The notes beneath the pieces were generated by a model, which saw nothing but the letters and a program-made list of their open reading frames with translations, ran no database searches and was not told the DNA's origin. Shown piece after piece: positions 1 to 47,808 of a stretch of 64,000 bases of DNA (position 1 is its first letter; each line of letters begins with the position of its first letter). A program made the position numbers and the translations under genes. The stretch spans positions 331-64,330 of the forward strand of contig JAFGJL010000010.1 of assembly GCA_016929115.1 (NCBI GenBank), written 5' to 3'. Source of the DNA: Candidatus Omnitrophota bacterium (GTDB lineage: Bacteria > Omnitrophota > Gorgyraeia > 2-01-FULL-45-10).

Positions 1-24
1 AGGTTTTGCCAGGACTATCTTCAT

Positions 25-723
25 CTAATTTACGAACCTGTATTTTAACAGCGTGGCGAGCGCCGAGATGCCGTGCTTCCAGGATATCTTCTTGCCCTCG
101 GCGTAGCTCCTGCCGTAATACGATATCGGCATCTCGTAGATGCGCAGCGACTTATTCTTCAGTATCTTCGCTGTCAGCTCCGGCTCGACCGAAAAACCGT
201 TCGAGCGTATGGTGATGCCGTCTACGACGCTTCTCCTGAACATCTTGTAGCAGGTCTCCATGTCGCTGAGCGTGGAATTGTACAGGAAGTTCGTAAGAAA
301 AGAGAGGAAGTTATTGCCCATCTTGTGCCAGAACATGTGTACGCGCTGCGGCTTGCCGCCGGAGAGGCGCGAGCCGTAGACGACGTCGGCCAATCCTTCC
401 TGTATGGGCTTGGCCATCTCGATAAACTCCTGGGGGTCATACTCAAGGTCCGCGTCCTGGACCACGACCACCTCTCCGGAGACGCTCTTGAAACCGGTGC
501 GCAGCGCCGCGCCCTTGCCCGAATTCTTCTCGTGCAGGATCACCCTTACTCTGGGGTCGAATTTCGCATCGCGCAGGACATCCCTTGTGCCATCGCCGGA
601 ACCGTCGTCCACGACCACTATCTCCTTGACGATGTCAAGCTTCAGCACCTTATCGATTATCTTCAGGACCGTGTTCTTCTCATTGTAGACCGGCATCACG
701 ACAGATAGAAACTGTTTATCCAC
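25..723 (-). CDS. GT2 glycosyltransferase, DPM1-like polyprenyl-phosphate mannose/hexose synthase (soluble type)
   Basis: The translation has SVVMPVYNE...VVVDDGSGDGT...VQDADLEYDP, a GT2 DxD/DAD signature, and a C-terminal region typical of dolichol-P-mannose synthase catalytic subunits. There is no TM segment. The start codon is GTG at 723. Confidence 0.8.
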   Translation of the reverse strand: MDKQFLSVVMPVYNEKNTVLKIIDKVLKLDIVKEIVVVDDGSGDGTRDVLRDAKFDPRVRVILHEKNSGKGAALRTGFKSVSGEVVVVQDADLEYDPQEFIEMAKPIQEGLADVVYGSRLSGGKPQRVHMFWHKMGNNFLSFLTNFLYNSTLSDMETCYKMFRRSVVDGITIRSNGFSVEPELTAKILKNKSLRIYEMPISYYGRSYAEGKKISWKHGISALATLLKYRFVN

Positions 724-755
724 GTCAAACTCCTCTTTTTTATGAACTGATGGCC

Positions 756-785
756 GAATCAGCTCATGAGCTCATGAGCTGATTC
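756..785. repeat. Perfect 30-bp palindrome (gaatcagctcatgagctcatgagctgattc) in the intergenic gap between the rSAM stop and the GT2 start
   Basis: Checked base by base: the reverse complement equals the sequence itself. It contains a tandem agctcatg core. It lies 14 nt downstream of the stop of the 799..2238 gene. It is a possible hairpin, attenuator or dimeric-regulator operator. Confidence 0.85.
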
Positions 786-798
786 GCAAACCTTCATT

Positions 799-2238
799 TT
801 AATATGCGATTTCATACTTCCCTTTTCTCTTCTTCCTTTTAAGAAGGCCGAGGCCTTTCAGCGTATCCTTGACAAGGTCCTCGAAGGCCTTCCAGTAGTA
901 CCGGTGGTATTTCAACGCGTCGACGAGCGCTAGAGTCGAAAGCGGCTTTCTCTTATCGAGCGCGTCATGGAAGATATTGAGGGCCGTCTTTGAGTTCTCC
1001 GCGGTGAATATCTTCCAGTGGTAATCGGTCAGCCAGAAATCGTCGTCGATAAAGCCTATCTTCTTGGCATGCTCGTACAGCTCAGTACCGGGAAGGATCC
1101 TTAGCCCGTTCGCGAGCCCCACCTCATCCGGCCCTGTCCTGTTCAGGAAATCGATCGTTTCGTTTATAGTTCGCCTGGTCTCGCCGAGATTGCCTACTAT
1201 GAGGAGGGCGGATGTCCTTATGCCCATCGTCTTCGTCATCACTATCGCCTTCTCCGAAATCCCGACGTCGACCTCTTTATGCATCTTTTTCAAGAGTTCC
1301 GGCGAGGCCGATTCTATACCGAAGCATATCTTGAAGCAGCCTGCCTTTTTAAGGGCGGCCAAAAGGTCCGGGTCGATGCAATCTGCGCGCGATACGATCT
1401 CAAAAGTTATCCTCAGCCCGCGCCGCGTTATCTCTTCGGCCACCTCTTTTGCCGCGCGTCGGTCCGCCGTGAAGAGGTCATCGTTAAAATTGAAGCGTTT
1501 GGCGCCGTATGTCTTATTGAGCATCTCGATCTCATCGACCATGTTCTTAGCGGACCTGCGGCGCCACCGTTTCCACAGGAGTTTGTCGGCGCAGAATACG
1601 CAGCGTCCTATGCATCCGCGCGAGAATACCACCGGAACGCACGGCTCGGCGGCGAGATCGATACCGTTATATCTACCGGACCCTTCGGGCGGATATTTGC
1701 CGATGTCGATCAGTTCCCACGCGGGGAACGGCACATCATCAAGGTTCGCGATAAGTGGCCGCTCGGGGTTCAAGCGGACTTCTTTGCCTTCCCGATAAGC
1801 TATACCCTGAATGTCTTTCAAGTCCTTGCCCTGGCACATCTCCAGAAAGGTGATCTCGCCTTCTCCCCTCGCCACAATATCGACGAACGGGTAGTGCTCG
1901 AGAAGTTGCCGAGGCATCAGCGTGGCGTGGGCGCCGCCCAGGACGACGAGCGTCTTCGCGTCCGCCTTTTTGACCGCCTCCGCCACTTTAAGCGCCTTAA
2001 CGCGGGAATAGGTGTGGCATGTGATACCGACGATCGTGGGTCGGTACTCCCTCATCTTCTTCTCTATTCCGTCCCATCCGGCGATGTAACCGTCGATAAG
2101 ATCGACGGGGATAGAGTTCTTCTTCAGCACCGCCGCAAGATATAAAAGCCCCAGAGGCGGCGTCGAATAGTCACCCCGTCCTGATTCCGGAGGGTTTATG
2201 AGGAGGACTCTTTGCATAACTCCCTGTATTTTGCCCAC
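799..2238 (-). CDS. Cobalamin-binding (class B) radical SAM enzyme
   Basis: The N-terminal B12-binding Rossmann region is LLINPPE...PPLGLLYLAAVLKK...VGITCHT. The radical SAM CX3CX2C motif is GCIGRCVFC. Length is 479 aa. Confidence 0.8.
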   Translation of the reverse strand: MGKIQGVMQRVLLINPPESGRGDYSTPPLGLLYLAAVLKKNSIPVDLIDGYIAGWDGIEKKMREYRPTIVGITCHTYSRVKALKVAEAVKKADAKTLVVLGGAHATLMPRQLLEHYPFVDIVARGEGEITFLEMCQGKDLKDIQGIAYREGKEVRLNPERPLIANLDDVPFPAWELIDIGKYPPEGSGRYNGIDLAAEPCVPVVFSRGCIGRCVFCADKLLWKRWRRRSAKNMVDEIEMLNKTYGAKRFNFNDDLFTADRRAAKEVAEEITRRGLRITFEIVSRADCIDPDLLAALKKAGCFKICFGIESASPELLKKMHKEVDVGISEKAIVMTKTMGIRTSALLIVGNLGETRRTINETIDFLNRTGPDEVGLANGLRILPGTELYEHAKKIGFIDDDFWLTDYHWKIFTAENSKTALNIFHDALDKRKPLSTLALVDALKYHRYYWKAFEDLVKDTLKGLGLLKRKKRKGKYEIAY

Positions 2239-2969
2239 TTAAGGAAATTTATGAACGCGAACAATACGGCGAATAGAAGCCCGTAAAACCCTTCCCTGTA
2301 GCCCTTCTTCTTGAAATACGCCTTCCAGAATATCTTGAATGAGCGGCCCATCATCTCTTTGCGGATCTTCTTCTCGCTCAAAACGCCTTTTTCCTTCAAT
2401 AAGTCTTTTGCCGCGATATCCGTATAGCGGTTCTGCCTGTTTATGAACTGGCTTATCGAATCGAAAGGGTAGTGCTCGATATCCGCCTCGATCGTGCCCA
2501 TCGCGCCTTTATAGACGGGCACCTCATGGACCTCGCCCTCGAAACGGACGAAGCGCCTGTTGAGGAAGTTCGGGATATAGTGACTCCACCCGCCATTCTC
2601 CATCGCGTGCCCGAGGAAGAAGTTCTTCCGGCGGAATTTGTATATTACGGTATCGCCCTTGTTTTGCGAGAGCGCATCCTCCGCCTTGAGGCGGAAACCA
2701 TCGGTCACGATGTCGTCCGCGTCGAGCGTCAGGACCCAGTCATTGCGGGCATTGTCATTGCCGACGTTACGGTCGTCGGCAAAGGCGCCCGTGAACTTGT
2801 GCGGCACTACCTTCGCGCCGTAGCCCTTCGCTATCTCGACCGTCTTATCGGTCGAGAGGCCGTCCACGACGATGACCTCGTCGACCCACCTGATCGACTC
2901 GAGGCACTTCGCGATGCGTTTTTCTTCGTTCTTCGCGATAATTACGGCTGATATCTTCGGCGCGCTCAT
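2196..2969 (-). CDS. GT2 family glycosyltransferase (WaaE/KdtX-like)
   Basis: MSAPKISAVIIAKNEEKRIAKCLESIRWVDEVIVVDGLSTDKT...LTLDADD. The start is set at the internal ATG at 2969, which forms an ATGA overlap with the upstream stop. The 358-aa N-terminal extension in the ORF track would overlap the whole upstream gene and is rejected. This is a paralog of 2966..3742. Confidence 0.75.
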   Translation of the reverse strand: MSAPKISAVIIAKNEEKRIAKCLESIRWVDEVIVVDGLSTDKTVEIAKGYGAKVVPHKFTGAFADDRNVGNDNARNDWVLTLDADDIVTDGFRLKAEDALSQNKGDTVIYKFRRKNFFLGHAMENGGWSHYIPNFLNRRFVRFEGEVHEVPVYKGAMGTIEADIEHYPFDSISQFINRQNRYTDIAAKDLLKEKGVLSEKKIRKEMMGRSFKIFWKAYFKKKGYREGFYGLLFAVLFAFINFLKWAKYRELCKESSS

Positions 2970-3742
2970 ATCTTCGGCTGGTTTTTCTCGTTCTCCAGCA
3001 TCTCCCAATATTTCACATAACTCATGAACTGGTAGGCGGCGCCGGCCCAGGAGACGATGAACCCGAGGAAGCCGTCCTTGAAGCCGCCTTTCTGGATATA
3101 CGCCTTGATAAAGCGGCTCGCCCCCTTGCGGTACATCTTGATGAAGTTTATCCTGCGCCTTTCCTTGAACCATTTCTTCGCCTCGAGAGTCGTCTGATTG
3201 TTCAGGCTCTGGAAAAAGTCGTGGAAGTCGCGGTACGAATAGTGGATGATGTCGCCTTTCAGGTGCCCGCATGTGCCGTCGATGAACACCCTGGGATGTA
3301 CCTCGGCTTCTTCATACTTGAACGAGCGCCGCTCAAAGAGCCGTACCTTCGGCGCCGGATACCAGCCCGCATGCCTGATCCAGCGCTTGCCGATGTACGT
3401 CTTTATCGGGATGGTGTAGGCCTTGTGCGGCTCAGGCCCGGCCTTGAATAGGCCGGCTAGTTCCGCGATGATCTCGGGACTTATACGTTCGTCAGCGTCA
3501 AGGCTCAGCGCCCAGTCGTTCCTGGCAAGGCTATAGGCGTAGTTGCGGTGCCTTCCCTCGATGTCCATCTTGCGCGAAAATACCTTGTCGGTGTAGCGCT
3601 TGGCGACCTCAACGGTCTTATCCGTAGAATTGTCGTCGAGCACGATCACCTCATCGCATCCTTGCGCGCTCTTCAGGCACTCCGCAATATTCTCTTCCTC
3701 ATTCTTCGTAATCACTACAACCGATATAGGTATTTTGTCCAT
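2966..3742 (-). CDS. GT2 family glycosyltransferase (WaaE/KdtX-like), paralog of the downstream gene
   Basis: ISVVVITKNEEENIAECL...VIVLDDNSTDKT...LSLDADE. The C-terminal half with KGGFKDGFLGF is shared with the neighbouring paralog. Confidence 0.8.
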   Translation of the reverse strand: MDKIPISVVVITKNEEENIAECLKSAQGCDEVIVLDDNSTDKTVEVAKRYTDKVFSRKMDIEGRHRNYAYSLARNDWALSLDADERISPEIIAELAGLFKAGPEPHKAYTIPIKTYIGKRWIRHAGWYPAPKVRLFERRSFKYEEAEVHPRVFIDGTCGHLKGDIIHYSYRDFHDFFQSLNNQTTLEAKKWFKERRRINFIKMYRKGASRFIKAYIQKGGFKDGFLGFIVSWAGAAYQFMSYVKYWEMLENEKNQPKI

Positions 3743-3761
3743 TATCTTTCCTTATTTTGAG

Positions 3762-3799
3762 ATTCCACCTACGCGGTGTTAACACCGCGTAGGTGGAAT
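3762..3799. repeat. Perfect 38-bp palindrome (attccacctacgcggtgttaacaccgcgtaggtggaat) centred on GTTAAC
   Basis: Checked base by base. It occupies almost the whole 63-nt gap between the stop of the GT2 triplet (3806) and the start of the GT2 pair (3742). No T-run follows it on the coding strand. Confidence 0.85.
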
Positions 3800-3805
3800 T
3801 ACCCG

Positions 3806-4825
3806 CTAATAATACTGTATCTTCGCCTTGTGAATGAACGAGAATTGCTCGAGCACCTTGCCGAAGCGCTCGTCGTCGACGAATATCCTGTCGAACTTCT
3901 TCTTCTTTTTCAATATGTTGAACAATACCGCCAGATGGAAGCGCTCGGACGGCATGCTCTTCACGATGATGTTCGAATGCCTCGGCGCGTCGAACGGCCC
4001 CTTCGAGAAGCACCAGACCCAGTTGCCGCCGCGCGCCAGTTTCATGAACTCGTTATTGACGTGGTTCAGCGTCAGGTCATCGAACGAGTCGAGCACGTAC
4101 GCCACGCGCGCTGGCCTGCCCCACCTGAACTCGTATATCTCCTTGTTGCGCTTAAAATCCTCTTCGAACGTCTTTGCCTTGTTGAACGAGCCGTGTTCCC
4201 TGTGGTACACATAGGCGCCGCACGCGCGGACGCATTTAAAACCTTCCCTAACGGCTTTGCGCGAAAAATCCGTGTCCTCGAAGTTGCCCATGCCGTATAT
4301 CTCGTCGAAATAGCCTATCTTCCCGATCACGGCCCGCGTTATGAGCATGCAGAAGCCGATCGCCGCGCCCAGTTCGACGTAAGCGCCGGCCTCTCTTCGG
4401 AGCTTCTCGGCATAAAGCTCGACCGGCTCGCCGGGTTCAGGCCTTTGGCCGAGATTGTTAGAAGACGGGTTCACAATGCCTATATCGGCCGACTTCTCCG
4501 CGATGGCGATCATTTCGCCGAGCCATCCTTTAGTCACGAGAGTATCATTGTTCAAAAGACAGACATAAGGCGCGCTTGACGCGCGCATACCCTGGTTCGC
4601 GGCCTTTACGAATCCGGTGTTCGCCTCGTTCCGGATGAGAAGCACCTTGTCGCCGTGCGACTTCGCAAGCGACTCGAGATAACTCTTCGTCTTCTCCTCG
4701 CTCGCGTTATCGATGAAAACGATACGGTACTCCGCGCCGGTATATTTAAAGATGGAATCGACGCAGTCGGCGGTAAAAGCGAGCTGGTTCCAGACAGGTA
4801 TTATTATGTCGCACTTCGCGCTCAT
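3806..4825 (-). CDS. GT2 glycosyltransferase with about 110-aa C-terminal extension (triplet member A)
   Basis: MSAKCDIIIPVWNQ...FIDNASEE...NNDT...FEDTDFS. The start is set at the ATG at 4825, which forms a verified ATGA overlap with the upstream stop. The track ORF extends to 4873. Confidence 0.75.
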   Translation of the reverse strand: MSAKCDIIIPVWNQLAFTADCVDSIFKYTGAEYRIVFIDNASEEKTKSYLESLAKSHGDKVLLIRNEANTGFVKAANQGMRASSAPYVCLLNNDTLVTKGWLGEMIAIAEKSADIGIVNPSSNNLGQRPEPGEPVELYAEKLRREAGAYVELGAAIGFCMLITRAVIGKIGYFDEIYGMGNFEDTDFSRKAVREGFKCVRACGAYVYHREHGSFNKAKTFEEDFKRNKEIYEFRWGRPARVAYVLDSFDDLTLNHVNNEFMKLARGGNWVWCFSKGPFDAPRHSNIIVKSMPSERFHLAVLFNILKKKKKFDRIFVDDERFGKVLEQFSFIHKAKIQYY

Positions 4826-5868
4826 GGTTGATCCGTTTTCGCGATCGCGTCGATTATATCGACGACGCGGCATTCGTCCTTATCCGCGTTGAAATAATAG
4901 ACTTTCGGCCTGACTTTCGAAAGTACCTGGCAGAGCACCGCGTCATCCGTAAAGACGGCGGCGTAACGCTTCGTCTTCTGCTTTGTCCAGTTCAGGCCCA
5001 GAAAGAACGGCGCGATGACCGCGGTGACAAGCCCCGGCCACTTCTTGTAACGTATGTTTATATGCTCCAGGCCTGCCCTGGCAGCGCCGTTCCACACATA
5101 GACGATGTGCTGTCGCCTGGCGAGCGACAGCAATATATCGAAGAAGCGCCTGTCCCTCGCCTTTGTCATGACGAAGGCGACGTTAAGGCGCCTGCCCCAT
5201 TTCTTGTAGAAGAGCGCCTTGTTCTTCTCGTGGAGCTCGAGCCGCTCGGCCTCCGCGAAAATATCCTTGAATGTGGAATCGCGCAGATGCTCGACATAGA
5301 CATCGTTCGCCCTCACGCACTTAAAGTGGGCGCGCAGCGCCCGCACCGAGAAGTCATCGTCGTCATAGTAGCCCAGGCCGTAACCCTCATCAAGGCCGCC
5401 GATCTTTTCGAGCACTTCCCTTTTTACAAGGATGCAGTAACCACGGCAGAAATCCACCTCGATATAGGGCTTATCCGACCGCTGCCTTACCTTCACCTCG
5501 AACCTCGGGTTCACGAGACCTATATCCGGTTCTGTCGCGGCAACGGCGAGGAGCTTCGAAAGCCAGCCCTTCGTATGCACAACAGTGTCGTTGTTCATGA
5601 CGCAGATGTACGGTGTTGAGGAAAGTTTTATGCCCTGGTTGACCGCCTTCACCCAGCCGAGATTCTCATCGTTGCGCACCAGGATAACGTTACCGTTGGA
5701 GCGCTTGAAATCCTCGAGAAATCCTTTTATTTCGCCTTTCGAACCGTTATCTATCAGGATGAGCCTGTACGGCGCGGTCGTGTTGGCTTGGATGCTCTCG
5801 AGGCAGTTCTTCGTGAGCTCCAGTTTGTTGTATACGGGAATGATGATGTCGCACTGCGCATCAGGCAT
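4822..5868 (-). CDS. GT2 glycosyltransferase with C-terminal extension (triplet member B)
   Basis: CDIIIPVYNKLELTKNCLESI...LIDNGS...MNNDT...YDDDDFS. It overlaps the next gene by 8 nt (ATGCCTGA). Confidence 0.75.
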   Translation of the reverse strand: MPDAQCDIIIPVYNKLELTKNCLESIQANTTAPYRLILIDNGSKGEIKGFLEDFKRSNGNVILVRNDENLGWVKAVNQGIKLSSTPYICVMNNDTVVHTKGWLSKLLAVAATEPDIGLVNPRFEVKVRQRSDKPYIEVDFCRGYCILVKREVLEKIGGLDEGYGLGYYDDDDFSVRALRAHFKCVRANDVYVEHLRDSTFKDIFAEAERLELHEKNKALFYKKWGRRLNVAFVMTKARDRRFFDILLSLARRQHIVYVWNGAARAGLEHINIRYKKWPGLVTAVIAPFFLGLNWTKQKTKRYAAVFTDDAVLCQVLSKVRPKVYYFNADKDECRVVDIIDAIAKTDQP

Positions 5869-7033
5869 ATTTTTTACGCTTCTCTTTTATGGAGAGGGCC
5901 GCCTCCTTCCCTCTTTCAAGCCAATCGTCGCATTCATCCTGCACCGAAAGCCGTTCGACGAAGGTATTGACCGCCCTCGCGCAAATAGCGAGCGGCCCGG
6001 CCACGGCATCGTCCAGTATCACGACCGCGTCGAAGCGCTTGTCGCGCATCCTTTTGCGGATCCGCTCGACGAGTTTGCCCGAGAGCGTCAGGCCGAAGAG
6101 CGGCTTCGGCAGATTGAAACGGTCGATCCTTATGTTCTGGTGCGGCGCCAATCCCTTTTTCGCCAAAACGGCCATCACCATCTCATCCAGCTTCTTGGCG
6201 TCGGCCGCCGTGTTTACCCAAAGATGGACCCATGTCCATTCCCGCGCGAGACCATAGGCCAGCAGGACCGCCTTTTGCAGCGTCATGGCATCATTGGCAG
6301 CGATAGAGACGGCCAGGCCGATGCGCAGGTGCTTGCCCCACTTTTTATAATAGATCTTCTGGTTACGCCTGACCCAATGCTCGCGGTTACCCGCCTTATC
6401 GAACGACGCATGGATGCGGTGGTAGACGTAGGCGTCATGGATGGCGACGGAACGGTAGCCGGCATTGTGGGCCCGCATCGAGTAATCGGTATCATCATAG
6501 CCGCCGATGCCGAACGCCTCGTCGAGATACCCTATCTTATTGATAAGGTCGCGCTTTATGAGCATGCAGAAGCCCTGGCACTGGTTCATCTCCATGTACT
6601 TGCCCTTGTTCTTCGCCAGCTCCTCCGCGTACGCTTCTATCGCCTTATCGCGGTGCCCGCCGCATACGGGGTTGATGAGGCCCACATCGTCGTGGCTCGC
6701 GGCAAAGTCTATCATGCGCTCGAGCCATCCCGGTCCGGGTATCGTGTCGTTATTGAAGACGCAGATATAAGGCGCGTCCGACAGCTTCATGCCCTGGTTG
6801 ACGGCTCTTACGAACCCCGCGTTCTCGTTGTTGCGTATTAGCCGCACATCGATCTCCTTGCCCAGCGCGCCCGGCTTCGCGATACCTTCGAGATATGCCC
6901 TTGTCTCGGCGTCGCTCGCGTTATCGATCAGGATGAGCCTGTACGGATACGCCGTGTTCCTGACGATATGCTCGACGCACTGCTTAGTGTGGTCGAGCTG
7001 GTTCCATATGGGTATGATGATGTCGCATTTCAT
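5861..7033 (-). CDS. GT2 glycosyltransferase with C-terminal extension (triplet member C)
   Basis: MKCDIIIPIWNQLDHTKQCVEHI...LIDNASD...FNNDT...YDDTDYS. Length is 390 aa. Confidence 0.75.
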   Translation of the reverse strand: MKCDIIIPIWNQLDHTKQCVEHIVRNTAYPYRLILIDNASDAETRAYLEGIAKPGALGKEIDVRLIRNNENAGFVRAVNQGMKLSDAPYICVFNNDTIPGPGWLERMIDFAASHDDVGLINPVCGGHRDKAIEAYAEELAKNKGKYMEMNQCQGFCMLIKRDLINKIGYLDEAFGIGGYDDTDYSMRAHNAGYRSVAIHDAYVYHRIHASFDKAGNREHWVRRNQKIYYKKWGKHLRIGLAVSIAANDAMTLQKAVLLAYGLAREWTWVHLWVNTAADAKKLDEMVMAVLAKKGLAPHQNIRIDRFNLPKPLFGLTLSGKLVERIRKRMRDKRFDAVVILDDAVAGPLAICARAVNTFVERLSVQDECDDWLERGKEAALSIKEKRKKYA

Positions 7034-7039
7034 AGTCGT

Positions 7040-7125
7040 TAGCCATGTTTAGCGTTTAGCGTGGAGCGTATAGAGAAAAATCCCCACCCTATACGCTAAA
7101 CGCTATCCGCTATACGCTAATTCAT
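7040..7125. repeat. Intergenic dyad element built from 7-nt periodic AGCG / CGCT repeats
   Basis: The left arm is tttAGCGtttAGCGtggAGCGtatag. The right arm is ctataCGCTaaaCGCTatcCGCTataCGCTaa. They are separated by gaaaaatccccaccc. It lies between the B12-rSAM stop (7133) and the GT2-triplet start (7033). Confidence 0.7.
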
Positions 7126-7132
7126 GCGCTCC

Positions 7133-8464
7133 TTATATAATACGCTGTAAAAAGTGCTTTATACGCCGCTCGATTATAAAATCGGCTTTCCGCGCGAGAC
7201 GGACGGATACGAAACGCTTTTTCGATTCGACAAGGGCTTCCTGCAGGAATTTGTAGTCGATCCCCTTTATCTTGGGCGCGTTCGGCGAACGGGCGAAGTC
7301 CGAATGCGACCTTATGAGCGACAGGCCGTTCTTGACGCAATAGTCGTAAAGGTCGCTTCCCGGATGGGGCGTGAAGAACGCGGGGCTCGGCCGGTAGGGC
7401 TTTATCTTCTGTATCATCCTTACCGTGTCCATCGCCTCCTCTTTCGTCTCGGTCGGCATGCCGAGCATGTAATTCGCCCATATCCGGACGCCGTGCTTTT
7501 TGCAGATCCTCGCGGCGCGATAGTTCATCTCAACCGTAGTCCCCTTGCGCAGGAAATTCAAAACGCGCTGGTTGCCGCTCTCGAAACCTATCAAGTACAT
7601 CGCGAGGCCGGCCTTCTTCATCAACCGGACCATATCCTCGTTCTTGCAGATTATATCGGCCCTTGACTGGCAAACGAACGGCTTCCGGAACTTGCGTCTC
7701 CTGTATTCGTCGCAGAACCGGATCACCCATTTGCGGTCCTCTGTCAGGCAATCGTCATGGAACATGAAACTCTGGAAGTCGTATCTTTCCCTCAAGAGCT
7801 CCAGCTCATCTATGACATTGGCCACGCTCCTTCGCCTGACTTTACGGCCGAATATCTTCCGCTCAGCGGGCTGGCAGAAGCTGCAGTTGTAGACACATCC
7901 GCGGCCCGCTATCACCGTGACGAAGGGCCGCCTCAGGAAATTCTCGATCGGTGATTCCTTGAAGCGGAAGAGCTCGCGATCGGCGAACGGCAGCGTGTCA
8001 AGGTCGGGATGCTCGCCGGTGATGACTCGCTCGCGCGGCCTGCAGTTCTCGATATCCTCGAGCAGTTTAAGGAAGGTCGTTTCGCCTTCGCCGACGACAA
8101 CGTAGTCGATGTTCGCGCCGGCCGCCACCTCCTCAGGCAGGATGCTCGGATGAGGCCCGCCGGCCACCACGACGATGTTCCTGTCGACTGATTTCGCGAT
8201 GCGCGCCGCCTCCATCGCCGGTTCGTAATCGACGCTCATCATCGTGACGCCGAGGACCTGCGGCTTAAGCCGCGATATCTCGCCGCGCACATCATCCCAG
8301 CCGGCAAGTTCCCTGAGGTCAATAAGGCTTACGTCGTGGCCCACCGCCTTGGCGCAAGCGCTCAAGGACGAAAGGCCGTGGTTCATCCAGCTGTATTCGA
8401 CCGGCGCCTTCGCTGTGTTGAACCCGGTCTCAGATATCCCCGGGAATACGAGCGTGACTCTCAT
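7133..8464 (-). CDS. Cobalamin-binding (class B) radical SAM enzyme
   Basis: N-terminal B12-binding region (VTLVFPG...VLGVTMMSV...VVVAGGPHPS). The CX3CX2C motif is GRGCVYNCSFC. Length is 443 aa. Confidence 0.8.
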   Translation of the reverse strand: MRVTLVFPGISETGFNTAKAPVEYSWMNHGLSSLSACAKAVGHDVSLIDLRELAGWDDVRGEISRLKPQVLGVTMMSVDYEPAMEAARIAKSVDRNIVVVAGGPHPSILPEEVAAGANIDYVVVGEGETTFLKLLEDIENCRPRERVITGEHPDLDTLPFADRELFRFKESPIENFLRRPFVTVIAGRGCVYNCSFCQPAERKIFGRKVRRRSVANVIDELELLRERYDFQSFMFHDDCLTEDRKWVIRFCDEYRRRKFRKPFVCQSRADIICKNEDMVRLMKKAGLAMYLIGFESGNQRVLNFLRKGTTVEMNYRAARICKKHGVRIWANYMLGMPTETKEEAMDTVRMIQKIKPYRPSPAFFTPHPGSDLYDYCVKNGLSLIRSHSDFARSPNAPKIKGIDYKFLQEALVESKKRFVSVRLARKADFIIERRIKHFLQRII

Positions 8465-9542
8465 TTTTTATGTCTTCCATGAAGCGGTCGATGTGGCGTG
8501 TCACATCGGCCGGTTTTATGCGGTCAAGGCATTTGAATGTATCGCAGGCGTTATGCTTGAAATTCCTGTAGCAGGGCCTGCATGCCTCGTCGCTCGTCAC
8601 CGTGACGAAATCCGCCTTCTGCGGATACGGCCCGTATATCCGCTCATCGACCGGGCCGAAGATCGATATGGTCCGTTTCTTCAGTCCCACAGCTATATGC
8701 AACGGGCCGCCGTCATTCGTGACGATGAGATCGCACCGGTCCAGAAGCGCGGCGAACTGCCCGAGCGACGTCTTGCCGCACGCGGTGACCGGCCGCGCCT
8801 TCATCTTCGCGTCGACCTCATCGCATATCAGCTTCTCCCTCTCGTCCCCGAAGATAGCTATCTTGCAGTCATACCTCTCGGCAGCGTAGTCGGCCACCTC
8901 GGCGAACTTCGAGGGCAACCATCGCCGGTACTTCGCGTTCCGGCCCCAGCTTGCACCGCAACCCGGAATGATGCCGCATACGCAGTCATCCTTATTGATG
9001 CCATGCTCAGCCAAAAAGCGCTCTGCCCATCGCCTGTCCTCATCCGCGACACAGACCTCTATGCACTTATCGGAGACGTCGATACCAAGCGGACGCCCCA
9101 GGTCCAGGTAATACTCGATGACGTGTTTGCCGTTAAAACCCTCCAGCATGATCTTATCGGTCAAAAACTTGCCACGATCCCTGTAGTTAAACCCTATGCG
9201 CCGCCGTATATGGGTAAAAGCTGCCAGGAGCAGGCTGCACTGATAGCCCAGCGACATATCGATAGCTACGTCGTAACCGGCCCTGTCCAGCGTCTTCAGG
9301 AGGCCATAAAGGGCCTTCAGGCATCTTAGCTTCGATTCCTTCCATAATTTCCGGTAGTCGTCCTTCTCGAATATATGGATGCCCGATATCTGGGGATTGT
9401 CCTTTATGATGCCGTAGGCCCTTTTGTTGCAGACGTAATCGATAGAGGAATCTGGGTACGCTCTTTTAAGCGCTCTCACAAGAGGCGTCGAAAAGAGGAC
9501 GTCCCCTACGCCGAACGGGTTTATGATGAGTATCTTCTTCAT
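8430..9542 (-). CDS. GT9 family ADP-heptose:LPS heptosyltransferase-like glycosyltransferase
   Basis: KKILIINPFGVGDVLFSTPLVRALKRAYP, the hallmark GT9 N-terminus, with a C-terminal GT-B half (TNDGGPLHIA). Confidence 0.8.
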   Translation of the reverse strand: MKKILIINPFGVGDVLFSTPLVRALKRAYPDSSIDYVCNKRAYGIIKDNPQISGIHIFEKDDYRKLWKESKLRCLKALYGLLKTLDRAGYDVAIDMSLGYQCSLLLAAFTHIRRRIGFNYRDRGKFLTDKIMLEGFNGKHVIEYYLDLGRPLGIDVSDKCIEVCVADEDRRWAERFLAEHGINKDDCVCGIIPGCGASWGRNAKYRRWLPSKFAEVADYAAERYDCKIAIFGDEREKLICDEVDAKMKARPVTACGKTSLGQFAALLDRCDLIVTNDGGPLHIAVGLKKRTISIFGPVDERIYGPYPQKADFVTVTSDEACRPCYRNFKHNACDTFKCLDRIKPADVTRHIDRFMEDIKNESHARIPGDI

Positions 9543-9544
9543 AT

Positions 9545-10825
9545 TTAAGCGCCTTCCGATATCCGGCCCATCGATGCCAAAAGTCCTGCCGACACCCAGA
9601 AGAGCGCGGCAAGATTAAGCGAAAACAGGTTTGTGTCCGTGAAAGCGTGAACAAGATATGCGATCATGCCCAGAGCGAGACCTGCCTGCATGCAACGAAG
9701 GAGAGCGTCTTCCGTCTTGCTTATCAGGTGCCGCGCGCGCCACACAAGCGCTGCCGCAAAGGCCAGGAATGCCGACAGACCCAATAATCCGGTATCCGCG
9801 GCTATCTGAAGATAACAATTATGGGCATAGGACCCCTTTTTGCCCTTGTATTCATCTTCGCGGATATTCATATAATTCACAAAGAATGTGTTGATGCCGC
9901 TGCCGATGACCGGATGCTGTTTGAATATCTTCCAGCCGTTTGACCACATGGTGTTCCTTTCAGCGATGCCGCCGAAAGACGTTACCGCCCCCTTCATGTG
10001 TTTCTTGAGAACGAACGGGCTTGCCAGCAATATGATGACCGCGAAAAGCGCGAGCGGTCTTTTTATGCTGCGGAACTTTATGCTGAATAGGGGAGCGATC
10101 AGGAGTCCCACGCCAAAAGCAAGCCAGGCCCCCCTAGTCTTGGTCAATATAAGGAATAGCATAAGGCATGCGGACAGGAGCGCAAAAAATATCCTGGCCA
10201 GGGGCTTTCCTTTATATGCTATGGCCATAATCGCTACGGGAAAGATCATTACCAGGATCCATGACGCGAAATCGTTCGGGAACGGGAACGACGCGGTCGG
10301 GGCCCCAAGGAACGTGGTTATGCGCGGATGTATTGAGCCAGGATATGTGACCATGAACGAGGTGCTGAACTGGAAGGAGGGATACCCGTGGAGTATATCG
10401 ACATAGGTGACGAAATACTGGATGAACGCGTCGATCACTATGACCACGCACGATATGAGCGCCATAACGGAGAAGTTCTTTATCTTTATCCTGTCATTGA
10501 GGGCCTCCTGCGCGACCAGGAAAAGCGCCGCGAACTTCAGGATCTTGGTAAAGAGCGCCTTAAGGCTCAAGGCTGTGTATGCGGTATTGATAAAGGACGG
10601 CAGCGACGCGAGGACAAAGGCCAGCAGCGCTATGTTGACCGCATTGAGAGCGAACAGCCTTTCCCTCTTCAATGCCTTCCTGGCCATGACCGCCACCAGA
10701 GCGACCACTATGCCGATCTCGATGATCGATTTCGAAAAGGGCAGGGCAAATATCAATATGTAAAGCGCCCAGGCCGCTATTTTGTCGAAATACCGCGCTA
10801 TTCTTTCGCGCTGCTCGCTTATCAT
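9545..10825 (-). CDS. O-antigen ligase/polymerase family (WaaL/Wzy_C-like) polytopic membrane protein
   Basis: KTRGAWLAF, GIAERNTMWSNGWKIFKQHPVIGSGINTF and YAHNCYLQIAADTGLLG match Wzy_C signatures. There are many TM helices. The start is set at the internal ATG 10825, with a verified ATGA overlap. The 112-aa upstream extension begins with GTG, is not membrane-like, and is rejected. Confidence 0.7.
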   Translation of the reverse strand: MISEQRERIARYFDKIAAWALYILIFALPFSKSIIEIGIVVALVAVMARKALKRERLFALNAVNIALLAFVLASLPSFINTAYTALSLKALFTKILKFAALFLVAQEALNDRIKIKNFSVMALISCVVIVIDAFIQYFVTYVDILHGYPSFQFSTSFMVTYPGSIHPRITTFLGAPTASFPFPNDFASWILVMIFPVAIMAIAYKGKPLARIFFALLSACLMLFLILTKTRGAWLAFGVGLLIAPLFSIKFRSIKRPLALFAVIILLASPFVLKKHMKGAVTSFGGIAERNTMWSNGWKIFKQHPVIGSGINTFFVNYMNIREDEYKGKKGSYAHNCYLQIAADTGLLGLSAFLAFAAALVWRARHLISKTEDALLRCMQAGLALGMIAYLVHAFTDTNLFSLNLAALFWVSAGLLASMGRISEGA

Positions 10826-11850
10826 TTTTTCTTCCGTCCGAACCGTTTCGTGTCTACGAGCGCCAATCTCAAGCCCAACACCAGCATGACCATGAAGACA
10901 AGGAATGCCACCACAAGGCTCGTCGTCCAGTATGCCTTCGTCACCGTCACGGCCGCGAGCCCCAGGAAGACGCATACGCCATATATGACAAGGACCGCCC
11001 TGAAGCGCTTTAATCCAAGCAGGGCCAGACGGTGCGACGAATGGTCCTTCCCGCCCTGGAATATTGAGCGCCTCTCCAGCATCCTGACCACCGTAACGAG
11101 AGTAGTGTCGAATATGGGGTAACCGAGGATAAGGATCGGGATCATGATCGACGTCGTCCACGAGGACGTCTTCCAGCTTGCCAGTATAGCTATCGTAGCG
11201 AGAAGATACCCGAGAACGAGGCTTCCTGCATCGCCCATAAAGATGCTTGCCTTGGGAAAATTGTGTTTCAGGAAACCCAAAGCGCTCCCCGCCACGGCGA
11301 AAGAGAGCGCGGCCACCATGCCCTGGCCGCTCATGTACGCGACCGTCCCCAGGAACGCCGCGGAAATAACGGCTATGCCGGCCGAAAGGCCGTTCATGTT
11401 GTCCAGAAGGTTGAACGCGTTCGTGATGCCTATTATCCAGAGATATGAGAATATTACATCGAGGTAGTAATTATTGAAAAATTCTATCCTCACGCCGGCC
11501 TTAATGGCGACGAGGGCCGCGAGGAACTGGCCCAGAAGTTTTATATTGGGCATCATGCCCATCTTGTCGTCGATAAGTCCGATCATAATGAGTATGAAAA
11601 TACCGCCTATCATGGCTTGCACATAGCCTGAAGATATGAGATCAACCTTCGTGAGGACCGCGATCAGGAAGGCGAAGAATATCGCGAGGCCTCCCAGAAG
11701 CGGCGTAGGATGGGCGTGGACCTTGTTGTCGTGAGGATGGTCAAGATATCCGAATCTTAAGGCAAGTCTCTTGATGAACGGGATAAGCGAATACGAGACG
11801 ACCAGCGCTACGAAAAAAGCCTCAAGGATCTGAGCTATCTGCATACGCAC
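10822..11850 (-). CDS. Polyprenyl-phosphate N-acetylhexosamine-1-phosphate transferase (MraY/WecA/GPT family initiating enzyme)
   Basis: IGLIDDKMG (DD motif), NAFNLLDNMNGL and IFMGDAGSLVLG, in a polytopic membrane protein of 342 aa. Confidence 0.8.
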   Translation of the reverse strand: MRMQIAQILEAFFVALVVSYSLIPFIKRLALRFGYLDHPHDNKVHAHPTPLLGGLAIFFAFLIAVLTKVDLISSGYVQAMIGGIFILIMIGLIDDKMGMMPNIKLLGQFLAALVAIKAGVRIEFFNNYYLDVIFSYLWIIGITNAFNLLDNMNGLSAGIAVISAAFLGTVAYMSGQGMVAALSFAVAGSALGFLKHNFPKASIFMGDAGSLVLGYLLATIAILASWKTSSWTTSIMIPILILGYPIFDTTLVTVVRMLERRSIFQGGKDHSSHRLALLGLKRFRAVLVIYGVCVFLGLAAVTVTKAYWTTSLVVAFLVFMVMLVLGLRLALVDTKRFGRKKK

Positions 11851-11853
11851 CTC

Positions 11854-12840
11854 TTATGTGAACTTCGGCTTATGTTTGAAATCCATGACGATCCTGGAGA
11901 GGAGCTCGTCTATCTCGATCTCCGGCTTGAACTTCGTCGATCTTTTCAGTTTCGTTATGTCCGGCTCGCGGTGGCGCATGTCCTCGAACCCCTTCTCATA
12001 CGCCTTGTCATACGGGATATGGTGTATCGGCGACCTTGAACCGGTCAGCTCCTTTATCCTTTTGGCTAACGCATTTATCGTTACCTTGTTGGCGGGATTG
12101 CCGATGTTGTATGCCTCGCCGTATAACCTTTGAACGTCGGCCAGGAGCATTACTGCCTTCACCGCGTCCGATACGTCGGTAAAGCACCTTGTCTGCTTGC
12201 CGTCGCCATAGATGGTAATGGGCTCGTTGGCAAGCGCCTGCCTGACGAATCGCGGGACGACCATGCCGTAGCGGCCTGTCTGGCGCGGCCCGCAGGTGTT
12301 GAAGAACCTGATTATTGTCACGGGCAGTTTCTTCTCCTTGAAATACGCGAGCGCAAGGAACTCATCAAGGGCCTTCGTGCACGAATAGCTCCAGCGCGAT
12401 ATCGATGTCGGGCCCAGGACGCGGTCGTCGTTCTCGTTAAAAACGCTCTTGCCGGGCCTGTCCTTGCCGTAGATCTCGGATGTCGAGGCGATGAGGACTT
12501 TTTTATTGCCGTACTCGTGCGCGAGCGACAGCACCATCTCAGTCCCGCCAACGTTGGTCAGGATCGTCTCGAGCGGATGGTCTATCACATACCTGACGCC
12601 GACAGCGGCGGCAAGATGATATATGACGTCGCATTTCTCGACAAGCTCTATCATGAGCGTCTTGTTCATGATGGTATCAATGTAATAGGTGAAATCCTTC
12701 ATCTCTTTCAGATGCGCGATATTCTCCACCCTGCCCGTGGAAAGGTTATCGATAACGGTTACGGTATCCCCTCTCTGCAGGAGCGCCTCCGCAAGATGCG
12801 AACCGATAAAACCCGCACCGCCTGTGATTAGGCATCTCAT
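11854..12840 (-). CDS. NAD-dependent nucleotide-sugar epimerase/dehydratase (extended SDR)
   Basis: CLITGGAGFIGSH (GxxGxxG) and YSCTK (YxxxK). Length is 328 aa. Confidence 0.8.
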   Translation of the reverse strand: MRCLITGGAGFIGSHLAEALLQRGDTVTVIDNLSTGRVENIAHLKEMKDFTYYIDTIMNKTLMIELVEKCDVIYHLAAAVGVRYVIDHPLETILTNVGGTEMVLSLAHEYGNKKVLIASTSEIYGKDRPGKSVFNENDDRVLGPTSISRWSYSCTKALDEFLALAYFKEKKLPVTIIRFFNTCGPRQTGRYGMVVPRFVRQALANEPITIYGDGKQTRCFTDVSDAVKAVMLLADVQRLYGEAYNIGNPANKVTINALAKRIKELTGSRSPIHHIPYDKAYEKGFEDMRHREPDITKLKRSTKFKPEIEIDELLSRIVMDFKHKPKFT

Positions 12841-14078
12841 TTCTTTCTCCTTTTCGCTTCAAAACGATCAAGATACAGCTTCGTCATGTTCTTCACCAGG
12901 TTTTCCTTGCTGAAATACGCGCTGCGCTTCAGGCCCTCGGCGCCGAGACGGTGCCTCAGTTCCCCGCTCTCGATGAGCCTGATGAGACCCGCGACAAAAC
13001 CGCCAAGATCGTTCTTCTTGACGAGGATGCCGTTGGCGCCGTCCTCCACAATATCGCCGACGCCACCTACATCTGTCGCGATGACCGGCCTCGAACAGGC
13101 CATCGCCTCGATAAGGGCCAACGGCGTTCCTTCGTTCAGCGAAGTAAGGGCCACGACGTCGAGCGCCTTATAAAGGACCGCGAGGTCATCGCGCCATCCG
13201 AGAAAGCGAACGCAGTCTTCTAAGCCGATCGAGTTAGAAAAACTCTTCAAGACGCCTGAGAGCTCTCCGTCGCCCGCGATGACAAAGACAGCTTTAAGAT
13301 CAGGCCGCCTCTTGCGCACCCCGGCAGCCGCGCTTAAGAACATTATATGGTTCTTGACCGGCACGAGCCGTCCTATAATACCTACCAGTACGGTCTTATC
13401 ATCTATCGCGAGCTCTTTTCGCAAGTCCACCGACACGCCGTTCGACGCGCTTAACCGGCTGATATCGACCCCAAGCGGAATGACCGCGCATTTAGAGCCA
13501 GGCATGATCTTGAACCGCCGCGCTATATCATCTTTCTGGCGCTCGCTCAAGACTACAACTTTATCGGTGACGAGCCCCAGGAACCGTTCGATCATGACAA
13601 AGAGCGCAGTCTTGACCGGACCGAAATAATGCTCAAAGACGTTGCCGTGGAAAGTGTGTATCTTCACCTTGACGCCGCACAAAGCCGCGGCCATCCTGCC
13701 GAGCGTACCCGCCTTGGCCGTGTGCGTGTGGACTATGTCCGGCCTTTCCCTTCGTATGATACCGAGTATCTTGAAGAAAGCCTTTATATCGCCCAGAGGA
13801 CTTATTTCGCGCCCCAGTTCCGGCACAAGCTCCATATCTACGCCCTGCTGCTCCATGAGGTATTTAAAGCTTCCCTCGCCTTTTGCCAAAGAACCGTAGA
13901 TAACCTTTGTCGAAAAGGTCTTAGCGTCCAGCGAAGATGAAAGTATGGACGCGTTGACGGCCGGACCGCCTATATTGAGCCGGGCGATTATCCTGAGGAC
14001 CCTTATCCTCCTTCGCCCTTCAACAGAAGACTGAGGTAGGGCTTCGGAGGATCCCGCAAAGTGCTTCATATTATCCAT
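12837..14078 (-). CDS. GT4 family glycosyltransferase
   Basis: EGTPLALIEAMACSRPVIATDVGG (the GT4 EX7E region) and a GT-B N-domain with HTH..AG. An alternative ATG at 14069 would give an ATGA overlap with the small upstream ORF. Confidence 0.8.
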   Translation of the reverse strand: MDNMKHFAGSSEALPQSSVEGRRRIRVLRIIARLNIGGPAVNASILSSSLDAKTFSTKVIYGSLAKGEGSFKYLMEQQGVDMELVPELGREISPLGDIKAFFKILGIIRRERPDIVHTHTAKAGTLGRMAAALCGVKVKIHTFHGNVFEHYFGPVKTALFVMIERFLGLVTDKVVVLSERQKDDIARRFKIMPGSKCAVIPLGVDISRLSASNGVSVDLRKELAIDDKTVLVGIIGRLVPVKNHIMFLSAAAGVRKRRPDLKAVFVIAGDGELSGVLKSFSNSIGLEDCVRFLGWRDDLAVLYKALDVVALTSLNEGTPLALIEAMACSRPVIATDVGGVGDIVEDGANGILVKKNDLGGFVAGLIRLIESGELRHRLGAEGLKRSAYFSKENLVKNMTKLYLDRFEAKRRKK

Positions 14079-22835: not shown

Positions 22836-24431
22836 TTATCTTGAAATAAAGTCCTTGACCGCTGATTTAACATCATGGTCCAATCTTTCCCGGAACCATT
22901 CGACAGCCACGGAAACACTCTCATCTTTATCGATCGCTGACGACCATCTGGAGACGCCTTTAATAAACCCGAATGATCCATGAACGCTCTCAGCCAATAA
23001 CGAAGCCTCTTTCCGGAATCCCGACCTTTTATACAGCCAGCCTAACATAAGCGCAAATCTTAAGAAGTGGAATTTGTTCGTATCCGGAGGAAAATCCTTA
23101 AGCCATTCGACATCGTCGGAAGATAATTTCATCTTCTTCGAATAAAGCATATCGATCCAAAGACTTTTAAGTATATTTTCTTTATACGCCCCTGAAACAA
23201 CTCTTTTTAATAGGGCCAGGTCTTCCCGGCCGGCCCTGCGCGTAACAAGCCCCTTGATAGCATCTTCCGCATCCGGATTGCTGTATTCTGCGGCAGATAA
23301 CCGCTCGATCACCCTGCGAGCTTTAGCTCTATACCCCATCCATGCCCAGAAGAGTGACAGGTCCGCCCACTTAATCCATTCATTACCCGCAGCTCCGGAA
23401 TCTATGACCTCTCTTATCTTGGATACGGCGTTCATAGCCGACTTTTCCGGCGGGATCGAAAGATGCGCTTCAATTAAACTGTCATAAATACCGACCCCTT
23501 TTTCATGGATGATGCTGATCACCCTGGGAACATCGGTTTCGTCCCTCACTATTATCTCGTCCAGCGAACCGTCGAATATCGTCCTGCGGCAGATCGGGAC
23601 AGGAACCACAGGTATCTTTCTCTGCATCGCGTCTATGATAACCTGGGATGTCCCCCTGTTGAAGAGGATATCAGTAACATCCAGGACCCTGTCTATGGGC
23701 GTCGGTCCGGGAGCCATCCTTGCGCGCGGGGCATAAGTTCTTAAGAATTTCATGGTCGTCGCCATGCTCTCAGCGGGATGCGGCTTGACCAGGAGCTCGT
23801 ATTCTTCCGTCAGCCCTTTTGACAAGATCTCAAGAATGCGTTTGCGCATGAAAGGCGTCTCTCCGTTAGGCGCAAGAAGGTCGAGGCTTAAGGTCGCAAC
23901 ACGCTTACTCTCGCTCAAACCAAATTCGCTCTTTGACGCTTTTTTTATAGTTTCACCCTTTTTATAACGGAATACGCCGCCTACCGTTTCTAGCGCGCTG
24001 GATGGCACCCCCAGTTTCATGAACTCGCTCTTCTCGTATTCCGAAGCAACAAAAAAATTATCAACAGGCAGGATATAATTATTCATAGCCGCCTGCGATA
24101 GCATCATCTGAGAAACCTCTTCCACAGCGATCACCGGTATCTTTCTCAAAAACGCCTCTTCCACCAGATTGCACTGCGCCGTGCGAAGCTGGGCGGTAAA
24201 AAGTATGACAGCCTTCACATCATCAAACGCCTCGCGAGATGGGCGCTGGAACAACCTGCCGCCAAACCATACCGCATCATCGCAGGACAGTTTCGCCGGA
24301 TCGGAAAACCATGAGAAATTCGGGTTGTATATCGCCCGGAAATGAAACTCCGGCATCAGCTTCTTGAATATCTGTATATTCCTGTCGTGAACAATTCCGA
24401 CCGGATTGAACAATATAACGTTTTTCTTCAT
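22836..24431 (-). CDS. Hypothetical GT-B-like protein with HP motif (TagF/KpsS/KpsC-type) plus helical C-terminal domain
   Basis: LLVKPHPAES followed by GTSQVIIDAMQRKIPVV, as in CDP-glycerol glycerophosphotransferase and capsule Kdo-transferase families. Confidence 0.45.
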   Translation of the reverse strand: MKKNVILFNPVGIVHDRNIQIFKKLMPEFHFRAIYNPNFSWFSDPAKLSCDDAVWFGGRLFQRPSREAFDDVKAVILFTAQLRTAQCNLVEEAFLRKIPVIAVEEVSQMMLSQAAMNNYILPVDNFFVASEYEKSEFMKLGVPSSALETVGGVFRYKKGETIKKASKSEFGLSESKRVATLSLDLLAPNGETPFMRKRILEILSKGLTEEYELLVKPHPAESMATTMKFLRTYAPRARMAPGPTPIDRVLDVTDILFNRGTSQVIIDAMQRKIPVVPVPICRRTIFDGSLDEIIVRDETDVPRVISIIHEKGVGIYDSLIEAHLSIPPEKSAMNAVSKIREVIDSGAAGNEWIKWADLSLFWAWMGYRAKARRVIERLSAAEYSNPDAEDAIKGLVTRRAGREDLALLKRVVSGAYKENILKSLWIDMLYSKKMKLSSDDVEWLKDFPPDTNKFHFLRFALMLGWLYKRSGFRKEASLLAESVHGSFGFIKGVSRWSSAIDKDESVSVAVEWFRERLDHDVKSAVKDFISR

Positions 24432-45875: not shown

Positions 45876-45920
45876 CTTTACACCTCTTTCTTTGATCTTA
45901 TCGTTGCCGAATATGCTGAA

Positions 45921-47796: not shown

Positions 47797-47808
47797 TGCT
47801 CTCTTCTC

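Follow-up and report, generated by a model that had tools for sequence, protein, structure and literature searches.

An ancient, conserved array of five family 2 glycosyltransferase genes in Candidatus Omnitrophota, three of which encode a basic C-terminal α/β domain

In bacterial genomes, the loci that encode surface glycans tend to rank with the most variable regions. Accessory C-terminal domains occur in known glycosyltransferase family 2 (GT2) enzymes, including TarS, TarP and GlfT2. The cell surface of the Omnitrophota is, to our knowledge, essentially uncharacterized. The Omnitrophota literature that we searched for glycosyltransferase, O-antigen and heptosyltransferase contained general remarks on variable lipopolysaccharide (LPS) or capsule cassettes only, and nothing on the genes described here. 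We analyzed a stretch of 64,000 nucleotides (nt) from a Candidatus Omnitrophota bacterium (assembly GCA_016929115.1, contig JAFGJL010000010.1, positions 331 to 64,330), referred to below as the window. It contains an array of five consecutive GT2 genes, a short pair (A1 and A2) and a triplet of two-domain genes (B1, B2 and B3). We favor, with somewhat better than even confidence, the reading that these genes are an old, fixed set of sequential, non-processive GT2 enzymes that build one conserved lipid-linked oligosaccharide.

The closest described enzymes are the non-processive GT2s of the WbbL, MftF and EpsD type. The array proteins resemble them in matching the Pfam families PF00535 and PF13641, in the motifs DN.S, NNDT and DD.D.S, and in a GT-A fold (predicted, for B3). 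They also look soluble and lack a QxxRW-type processivity module. They differ in that their NCBIfam scores fall far below the cut-offs, so that neither membership nor sugar specificity follows, and in that the matches end by about residue 216, leaving the C-terminal α/β domain of the triplet uncovered. The chondroitin polymerase of Escherichia coli K4 (K4CP, PDB 2z86) is only about 15% identical; it is a polymerase of about 620-690 amino acids (aa) with two GT-A domains, whereas B1, B2 and B3 each have a single GT-A domain and a second domain that is not GT-A. Staphylococcus aureus TarP and TarS, with a GT-A domain and a C-terminal oligomerization domain, were compared for their two-part architecture. 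In a comparison with the PDB, no solved structure of an accessory-domain GT2 covered the C-terminal domain of the triplet. At the level of the locus, the nearest systems are the lipid-linked-oligosaccharide lines such as Campylobacter pgl, the waa LPS core and Rhizobium PssG/PssI, which likewise combine an initiating transferase, sequential paralogous glycosyltransferases, an exporter and a Wzy_C ligase in one co-oriented cluster. The present cluster differs from them in adding many B12-dependent radical enzymes and a lineage-specific family of two-domain GT2s, and it differs from hypervariable O-antigen loci in that the array is deeply conserved.

The genes of the array and the domains of the triplet are as follows.

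2196-2969, minus strand: A1, GT2 of 257 aa, second gene of the short pair (PF00535, 79 bits)
2966-3742, minus strand: A2, GT2 of 258 aa, first gene of the short pair (PF00535, 70 bits)
3806-4825, minus strand: B1, two-domain GT2 of 339 aa (PF00535, 89 bits)
4121-4825, minus strand: GT-A catalytic domain of B1, residues 1-235
3809-4120, minus strand: C-terminal basic α/β domain of B1, 104 aa, the shortest version
4822-5868, minus strand: B2, two-domain GT2 of 348 aa (PF00535, 90.5 bits)
5197-5868, minus strand: GT-A catalytic domain of B2, residues 1-224
4825-5196, minus strand: C-terminal basic α/β domain of B2, 124 aa
5861-7033, minus strand: B3, two-domain GT2 of 390 aa
6338-7033, minus strand: GT-A catalytic domain of B3, residues 1-232
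5864-6337, minus strand: C-terminal basic α/β domain of B3, 158 aa, the longest version, with five β-strands

All five genes lie on the minus strand, within a co-oriented gene run that spans positions 1-14,000 of the window, and their order in the direction of transcription is B3-B2-B1-A2-A1. The five proteins scored 70-90 bits on PF00535 (Glycos_transf_2), for which the gathering score is 23.3. The mechanically called open reading frame (ORF) at 2196-3272 (358 aa) is over-extended. We placed the true start of A1 at the ATG at 2969 because this codon overlaps the A2 stop codon (ATGA) and because the resulting 257 aa fit orthologues of 254-264 aa. The coding sequences overlap by 8 nt (B3/B2), 4 nt (B2/B1) and 4 nt (A2/A1), and these overlapping stop and start codons suggest that the array genes may be co-translated. 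The only true intergenic gap inside the array is 3743-3805, between B1 and A2.

The earlier note on this DNA had described five GT2 genes in a row, with a left boundary at 2196 and the triplet at the positions listed above, consisting of a paralogous pair and then a paralogous triplet. All of this was confirmed, the relations in all-against-all BLASTP being far beyond chance. B1, B2 and B3 were 36-40% identical to each other over nearly their full length (E 3e-69 to 2e-80), and A1 and A2 were 34% identical (E 3e-37). Between the A and B groups, or between either group and the 232-aa GT2 encoded at 25-723 (here G0), the likeness was marginal and confined to at most about 90-120 N-terminal residues (E ≥ 5e-5). 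The members of the triplet thus resemble each other far more than they resemble unrelated GT2s. The motifs that had been pointed out in the triplet (CDIIIP, IDN.S, NNDT and (Y/F)(D/E)D(T/D)D(F/Y)S) are present and invariant. In 89 family members, including B1, B2 and B3, the GT-A motif residues D37/N38, N94-N95-D96 and D181/D183 were invariant. We considered whether one of the B copies might be a pseudo-enzyme and rejected this, since every GT-A motif residue is invariant in all three. Where K4CP has D-C-D, the triplet has an invariant N-N-D (N94-N95-D96 in B3), keeping only the final Asp; in the acidic (D/E)D(T/D)D region, neither D181 nor D183 varies. The corresponding motifs of the pair are LDADD in A1 and LDADE in A2. 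In NCBIfam, MftF, EpsD and the TIGR01556 rhamnosyltransferase subfamily came closest, all below threshold. For A1 and A2 the best named likenesses were to SunS, TIGR04283 and GmaR, all sub-threshold or partial, and no model of the LPS-core β-glucosyltransferases LgtF or WaaE was among their matches in the libraries searched. The best PDB sequence match of A2 was the N-terminal glycosyltransferase domain of GmaR (E 8e-16).

The duplications that produced these genes are ancient, and every copy has been kept by selection. We scanned one genome per GTDB species for relatives, found 511 encoded relatives, fetched 73 loci and classified their ORFs. B3 has hundreds of homologues, nearly all in metagenome-assembled genomes (MAGs) of Candidatus Omnitrophota; identity is about 55-65% for the top full-length ones and rises to 83% and 89% in two close relatives. 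We compared the window in particular with two relatives, L001 (a 94-kb contig from JGI, the Joint Genome Institute) and L003 (GCA_023818895.1, 733 kb). Across the three, orthologues in the same position were 53-62% (B3), 51-57% (B2), 63-67% (B1), 74-77% (A2) and 61-69% (A1) identical, while any pair of paralogues was 31-45% identical. A2 is the most conserved gene of the array, with orthologues 70-93% identical across many Omnitrophota. A neighbor-joining tree of 62 family members contained four old orthogroups, each with sequences from at least 10 loci. The window's B1, B2 and B3 fall one each into three of these; the fourth B-type paralogue, X358, is absent from the 64-kb window. Because orthologues are closer than paralogues and the tree resolves into four orthogroups, we place the duplications before the point at which these lineages diverged.

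Gene order tells the same story over a defined range. About 20 of the 73 loci that we fetched have the order B3-B2-B1-A2-A1. L001 and L003 share a longer series consisting of an epimerase gene, an MraY-like gene, Wzy_C, GT9, in some cases a radical S-adenosylmethionine (SAM) gene, then B3, B2, B1, A2, A1, X358, the 232-aa GT2 and a radical-SAM gene. The series from the epimerase gene through the array to G0, with or without X358 and the radical-SAM gene after GT9, recurs in L001, L003, L006, L008, L012, L020, L029 and others. In more distant lineages the locus varies: it has between one and four members of the family, or other genes are inserted.

These data bear directly on the suggestion in the earlier note that the genes arose by recent duplication and divergence and generate linkage or acceptor diversity. 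The paralogues are adjacent and co-oriented, loci across the phylum differ in having between one and four family members, and X358 is missing from the window, all of which count in favor of recent tandem amplification with fast divergence that gives strain-level variation in linkage or acceptor. However, the B paralogues are only 36-40% identical and the A paralogues 34%, their nucleotide identity is 51-56%, each copy has closer positional orthologues elsewhere, and the tree consists of old clades. A ratio of nonsynonymous to synonymous substitution rates (dN/dS) for the paralogues in the window had been proposed as a check; we computed it, and the ratios are meaningless because dS is saturated (above 1.3, at 1.3-1.45, or not computable and returned as -1). 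We instead took dN/dS between orthologues, using the close relative L074 (83-88% amino-acid identity), and obtained whole-gene values of 0.10 for B3, 0.10 for B2 and 0.09 for B1, near 0.1 as under long-term purifying selection. We therefore regard recent amplification as extremely improbable. Neither recency nor the generation of diversity was borne out, also in the comparison with related genomes that had been proposed for copy number, and the array is a conserved feature.

Three side observations concern the array and its edges. There is a local rearrangement where window positions 25-2969 correspond to 14011-18324 of L001 and 13993-17937 of L003: the relatives have A1, X358, the 232-aa GT2 and a radical-SAM gene, and the window has A1, a radical-SAM gene and the 232-aa GT2. 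The radical-SAM gene between GT9 and B3 is present in the window and L001 and absent in L003 and L074. An Omnitrophota-type array is also found in third-party-annotation MAGs labeled "uncultured Planctomycetia/Planctomycetales" (L009, L015, L020, L030, L035, L040, L041, L043, L044 and others); the B3 orthologues in Planctomycetia-labeled MAGs are 43-61% identical, and the labels are probably coarse or outdated.

A strong inverted repeat lies in each of three real intergenic gaps in this region (755-786, 3762-3799 and 7047-7115). Two are loop-less perfect palindromes, of 32 bp and 38 bp, and the third is an imperfect hairpin of 27 nt made of repeated TAGCGT-like units. The longer palindrome is in the gap between B1 and A2.

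3762-3799, no strand: 38-bp perfect palindrome with 19-nt arms, 100% complementary, without a loop

L001 lacks the repeats at the corresponding positions, its gap being about 10 nt, and the sequence of L074 differs there. The repeats could have a role in termination, RNA processing or protein binding.

The triplet is set apart from the pair by its C-terminal extensions, which follow the GT-A core and are 104 aa (B1), 124 aa (B2) and 158 aa (B3) long. The extra domain of divergent sequence that had been noted is therefore present, with a measured length of 104-158 aa rather than 100-150 aa. Pairwise identity was 23-26% between the extensions and 42-47% between the GT-A cores. Pairwise BLAST of the C-terminal domains was barely or not significant, and a hidden Markov model (HMM) built from B3 alone matched the B1 domain with E=0.008 only. 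Since BLAST and a single HMM were too weak, homology of the domains had to be assessed by profile-profile comparison. With hhalign, alignments of the orthogroups matched over nearly the whole domain with 96-99% probability (E 6e-9 to 4e-17); B1 against the B3 type gave 98.8% (E 4e-17), and B2 against the B1 and B3 types gave 96.6-97.4%. We conclude that the C-terminal domains are homologous. The orthogroups have several motifs in common: strand 1 carries R-[IV], strand 2 is rich in aromatic residues, and LAR, H-x-N and a polybasic stretch with [FY]-D after it recur as well. The polybasic stretch precedes strand 4 in every orthogroup. The domains are basic, with isoelectric points (pI) of 9.8-10.1 (9.8 for B1, 10.1 for B2) versus 6.0-7.1 for the GT-A cores. 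The dN/dS of the C-terminal domain between orthologues was 0.07-0.16 (0.07 for B1, 0.09 for B2), indicating purifying selection.

We used AlphaFold2 with an alignment of 89 sequences to predict the structure of B3. The model (mean predicted local distance difference test score 95.6, predicted template modeling score 0.92) consists of a GT-A domain at residues 1-232, whose three-dimensional fold is confidently predicted, and a five-stranded β/α domain at 237-390. No long hydrophobic helix appears in the predicted secondary structure. The folds nearest to the C-terminal model are halves of GT-B enzymes, including an N-terminal-domain construct, and Foldseek returned the same superfamily with weak scores. 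The pertinent comparison is with the N-terminal, acceptor- or membrane-side Rossmann domain of GT-B enzymes of families GT1, GT4 and GT5 (the SPS N-domain 6ldq, BshA, MshA and WaaG), which the predicted fold resembles. The two-domain cleft of GT-B enzymes is lacking, as there is a single α/β domain of 104-158 aa. Searches of Pfam (E ≤ 10) found nothing credible for the C-terminal domains, a DUF454 match of B1 (E=0.089) being at chance level, and the best match in a PDB sequence profile search (E ≤ 10) had E=0.7. Homology to a GT-B family profile was not detected in these searches. The statement that the extensions have no obvious known fold thus holds for sequence searches, and does not hold for the predicted structure, which is a common Rossmann-like α/β fold nearest to a GT-B half. 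On the predicted model, the domain is not a member of GT-B and the resemblance is structural alone.

The domain is narrowly distributed. A profile built mainly from B3-type sequences had 45 matches among 1.84 billion cluster representatives, and each of the 45 was either a GT2 in which the domain began some 230 residues after the N-terminus or a fragment. A broader HMM found it also in a Spirochaetes MAG and, weakly, in 623-aa proteins of Thermodesulfobacteriota. In a literature search for GT-A enzymes with a Rossmann-like C-terminal domain we found no matching description. A GT-A core joined to a basic, GT-B-half-like domain without a Pfam model is a compact, lineage-restricted family.

On one account, the domain binds a small ligand or acts as a second catalytic module; it might, for example, be what is left of a GT-B half and still have a nucleotide, a sugar phosphate or a regulator as its ligand. 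The polar motifs LAR, H-x-N and K-[KR]-[FY]-D, common to all orthogroups, and the fact that the nearest folds are Rossmann domains of glycosyltransferases are consistent with this account. We consider it quite improbable: a single Rossmann-like half cannot form the interdomain catalytic cleft of GT-B, the domain has no sequence match to any family in the Pfam and PDB searches, and B1 lacks the last strand and helix found in B3. The domain most likely docks the enzyme to the anionic membrane or a pyrophosphate-lipid acceptor, to neighboring enzymes, or to both.

Natural fusions of the triplet genes also bear on the role of the domain. B3-B2 fusions were found in P0123 (759 aa), P0004, P0027, P0050 and P0069, and both complete two-domain modules are kept. 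B2 is fused to a heptosyltransferase-like GT9 in P0162 (705 aa), and B1 to a SAM methyltransferase in P0155 (569 aa); P0123, P0162 and P0155 come from other metagenomes. It is unlikely that these proteins of 520-760 aa are assembly frameshifts, as there are at least five sequences, from different sources and with differing linkers. The fusions link the family to a single pathway, and perhaps to a single complex. B1, B2 and B3 might form a hetero-oligomer through C-terminal domains that serve mainly as a protein-protein scaffold, comparable in function to the C-terminal oligomerization domains of TarS and TarP, and less as a module for membrane or acceptor, a proposal that overlaps with sequential assembly of one oligosaccharide. 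In its favor are the fixed gene order with overlapping coding sequences, the independent B3-B2 fusions that retain both full modules, and C-terminal domains constrained as strongly as the catalytic cores. However, uniformly basic domains (pI about 10) would repel each other unless bridged by membrane or substrate, and the fusions with GT9 and a methyltransferase indicate a shared pathway rather than a specific interface between B proteins. We regard this scaffold as possible but doubtful.

The genes around the array provide the context for the preferred reading, in which the five proteins build one lipid-linked oligosaccharide. The nearest are the following.

25-723, minus strand: G0, GT2 of 232 aa like DPM1, GtrB and AglJ (polyprenyl-phosphate sugar synthase type; PF00535, 128.6 bits), at the end of the syntenic array
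799-2238: B12-binding radical-SAM gene flanking the array
7133-8464: B12-binding radical-SAM gene flanking the array
8430-9542, minus strand: GT9 (PF01075)
9545 to about 10825, minus strand: Wzy_C, O-antigen-ligase-like (PF04932)
10822-11850, minus strand: polyprenyl-phosphate sugar-phosphate transferase of the MraY/WecA family (PF00953)

NCBIfam matches of G0 to AglJ, PpgS and ArnC-like models were below the cut-offs, and its orthologues are 72-75% identical. The order of the GT9, Wzy_C and MraY-like genes is kept in L001, L003 and L074, and further upstream in transcription order are an NAD-dependent epimerase/dehydratase gene and a GT4 gene. The mechanical ORF for Wzy_C (9545-11161, 538 aa, GTG start) runs about 340 nt into the MraY-like gene. 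Translation probably begins near 10825 instead, and the resulting protein of about 426 aa matches orthologues of 414-428 aa. Beyond these genes, the window is a single long cluster for glycan biosynthesis, with an ATP-binding cassette (ABC) exporter (26507-28303) and PMT_2 proteins of the GT-C type among its products. Together, the initiating transferase, GT9, Wzy_C, the G0-type GT2, PMT_2 and the exporter fit stepwise lipid-linked assembly in the cytoplasm, followed by export and transfer.

The analysis shows the paralogy, the age of the duplications, the synteny, the purifying selection, the predicted fold, the charge and the gene fusions. From these features we infer the order in which the enzymes act, their use of a lipid-linked substrate, what the C-terminal domain does and which kind of glycan results. 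The ancestor of the triplet would already have had two domains, a GT-A core and a basic GT-B-half-like α/β domain, and would have split into four orthogroups before the lineages diverged, each copy presumably becoming specialized for one step. The result would be four specialized sequential transferases, three of them in the window, in addition to the A pair. From the gene content, the upstream MraY/WecA-family enzyme would prime the lipid carrier, and the glycan would be extended by GT9, B3, B2, B1, A2 and A1. The five array proteins would act as soluble or peripheral inverting GT2s that add successive sugars at the cytoplasmic face of the membrane, and the two B12-binding radical-SAM enzymes that flank the array may modify the glycan. 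The product would be exported, for example by the ABC exporter, and the Wzy_C-family protein would pass it to the final acceptor, either lipid A-core or protein.

Several points weigh against this scheme. The metal-binding motif of the triplet is NND, not the canonical DxD. No donor, acceptor or linkage can be assigned, as all NCBIfam matches are far under the cut-offs. The role of the C-terminal domain is drawn solely from charge, fold resemblance and fusions, and the window does not tell whether the organism makes lipid A or glycosylates proteins. More distant Omnitrophota carry just one or two members of the family, or have other genes inserted into the series, and the array is "fixed" in one large clade only.

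Other genes of the window suggest an unusual glycan chemistry. There are six B12-binding radical-SAM genes (the two flanking the array and 28297-29835, 34769-36163, 36160-37746 and 50848-52284) and two other radical-SAM genes (24435-25415 and 39974-41320), one with a SPASM domain. Such an unusually dense set of radical-SAM genes, interspersed in a 64-kb co-oriented glycan cluster, suggests extensive C-methylation or other radical sugar chemistry. Genes at 31958-32839, 38450-39307, 39313-39987, 41320-42663, 46993-47796 and 44508-49152 encode two NeuB-family synthases, three CTP_transf_3 proteins, two class-III aminotransferases and a formyltransferase. The CTP_transf_3 proteins are like synthetases of cytidine-monophosphate sugars, and one is fused to a methyltransferase. 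This whole set of genes suggests that the window encodes one or two pathways for nonulosonic acids, unusually modified. A 478-aa protein encoded at 60193-61629 combines NTP_transferase (sugar-1-phosphate nucleotidylyltransferase) with GT2, a fusion of donor synthesis and transfer. At E ≤ 1e-3, Pfam gave no match for the ORFs at 22836-24431, 29796-30977, 32820-34757, 61630-63363 and 63365-63985 (531, 393, 645, 577 and 206 aa).

By profile and fold these genes are ordinary GT2s, the system is ordinary in kind, and its domain variant is modestly new. In practice the findings are of use only for annotation and for the glycobiology of candidate phyla, and nothing here challenges the current understanding of glycosyltransferases. 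The C-terminal domain could be defined as a new domain family. A more far-reaching proposal, which we think unlikely, is that the domain is a previously undescribed targeting or scaffolding module that assembles three or four paralogous GT2s, GT9 and modifying enzymes into a membrane-bound hetero-complex building a glycan conserved in this clade of Omnitrophota; if it were true, the product would be an effectively phylum-specific "core" envelope glycan. The identities of the paralogues and their order, kept across many uncultivated Omnitrophota, point to a conserved envelope glycan in these bacteria.

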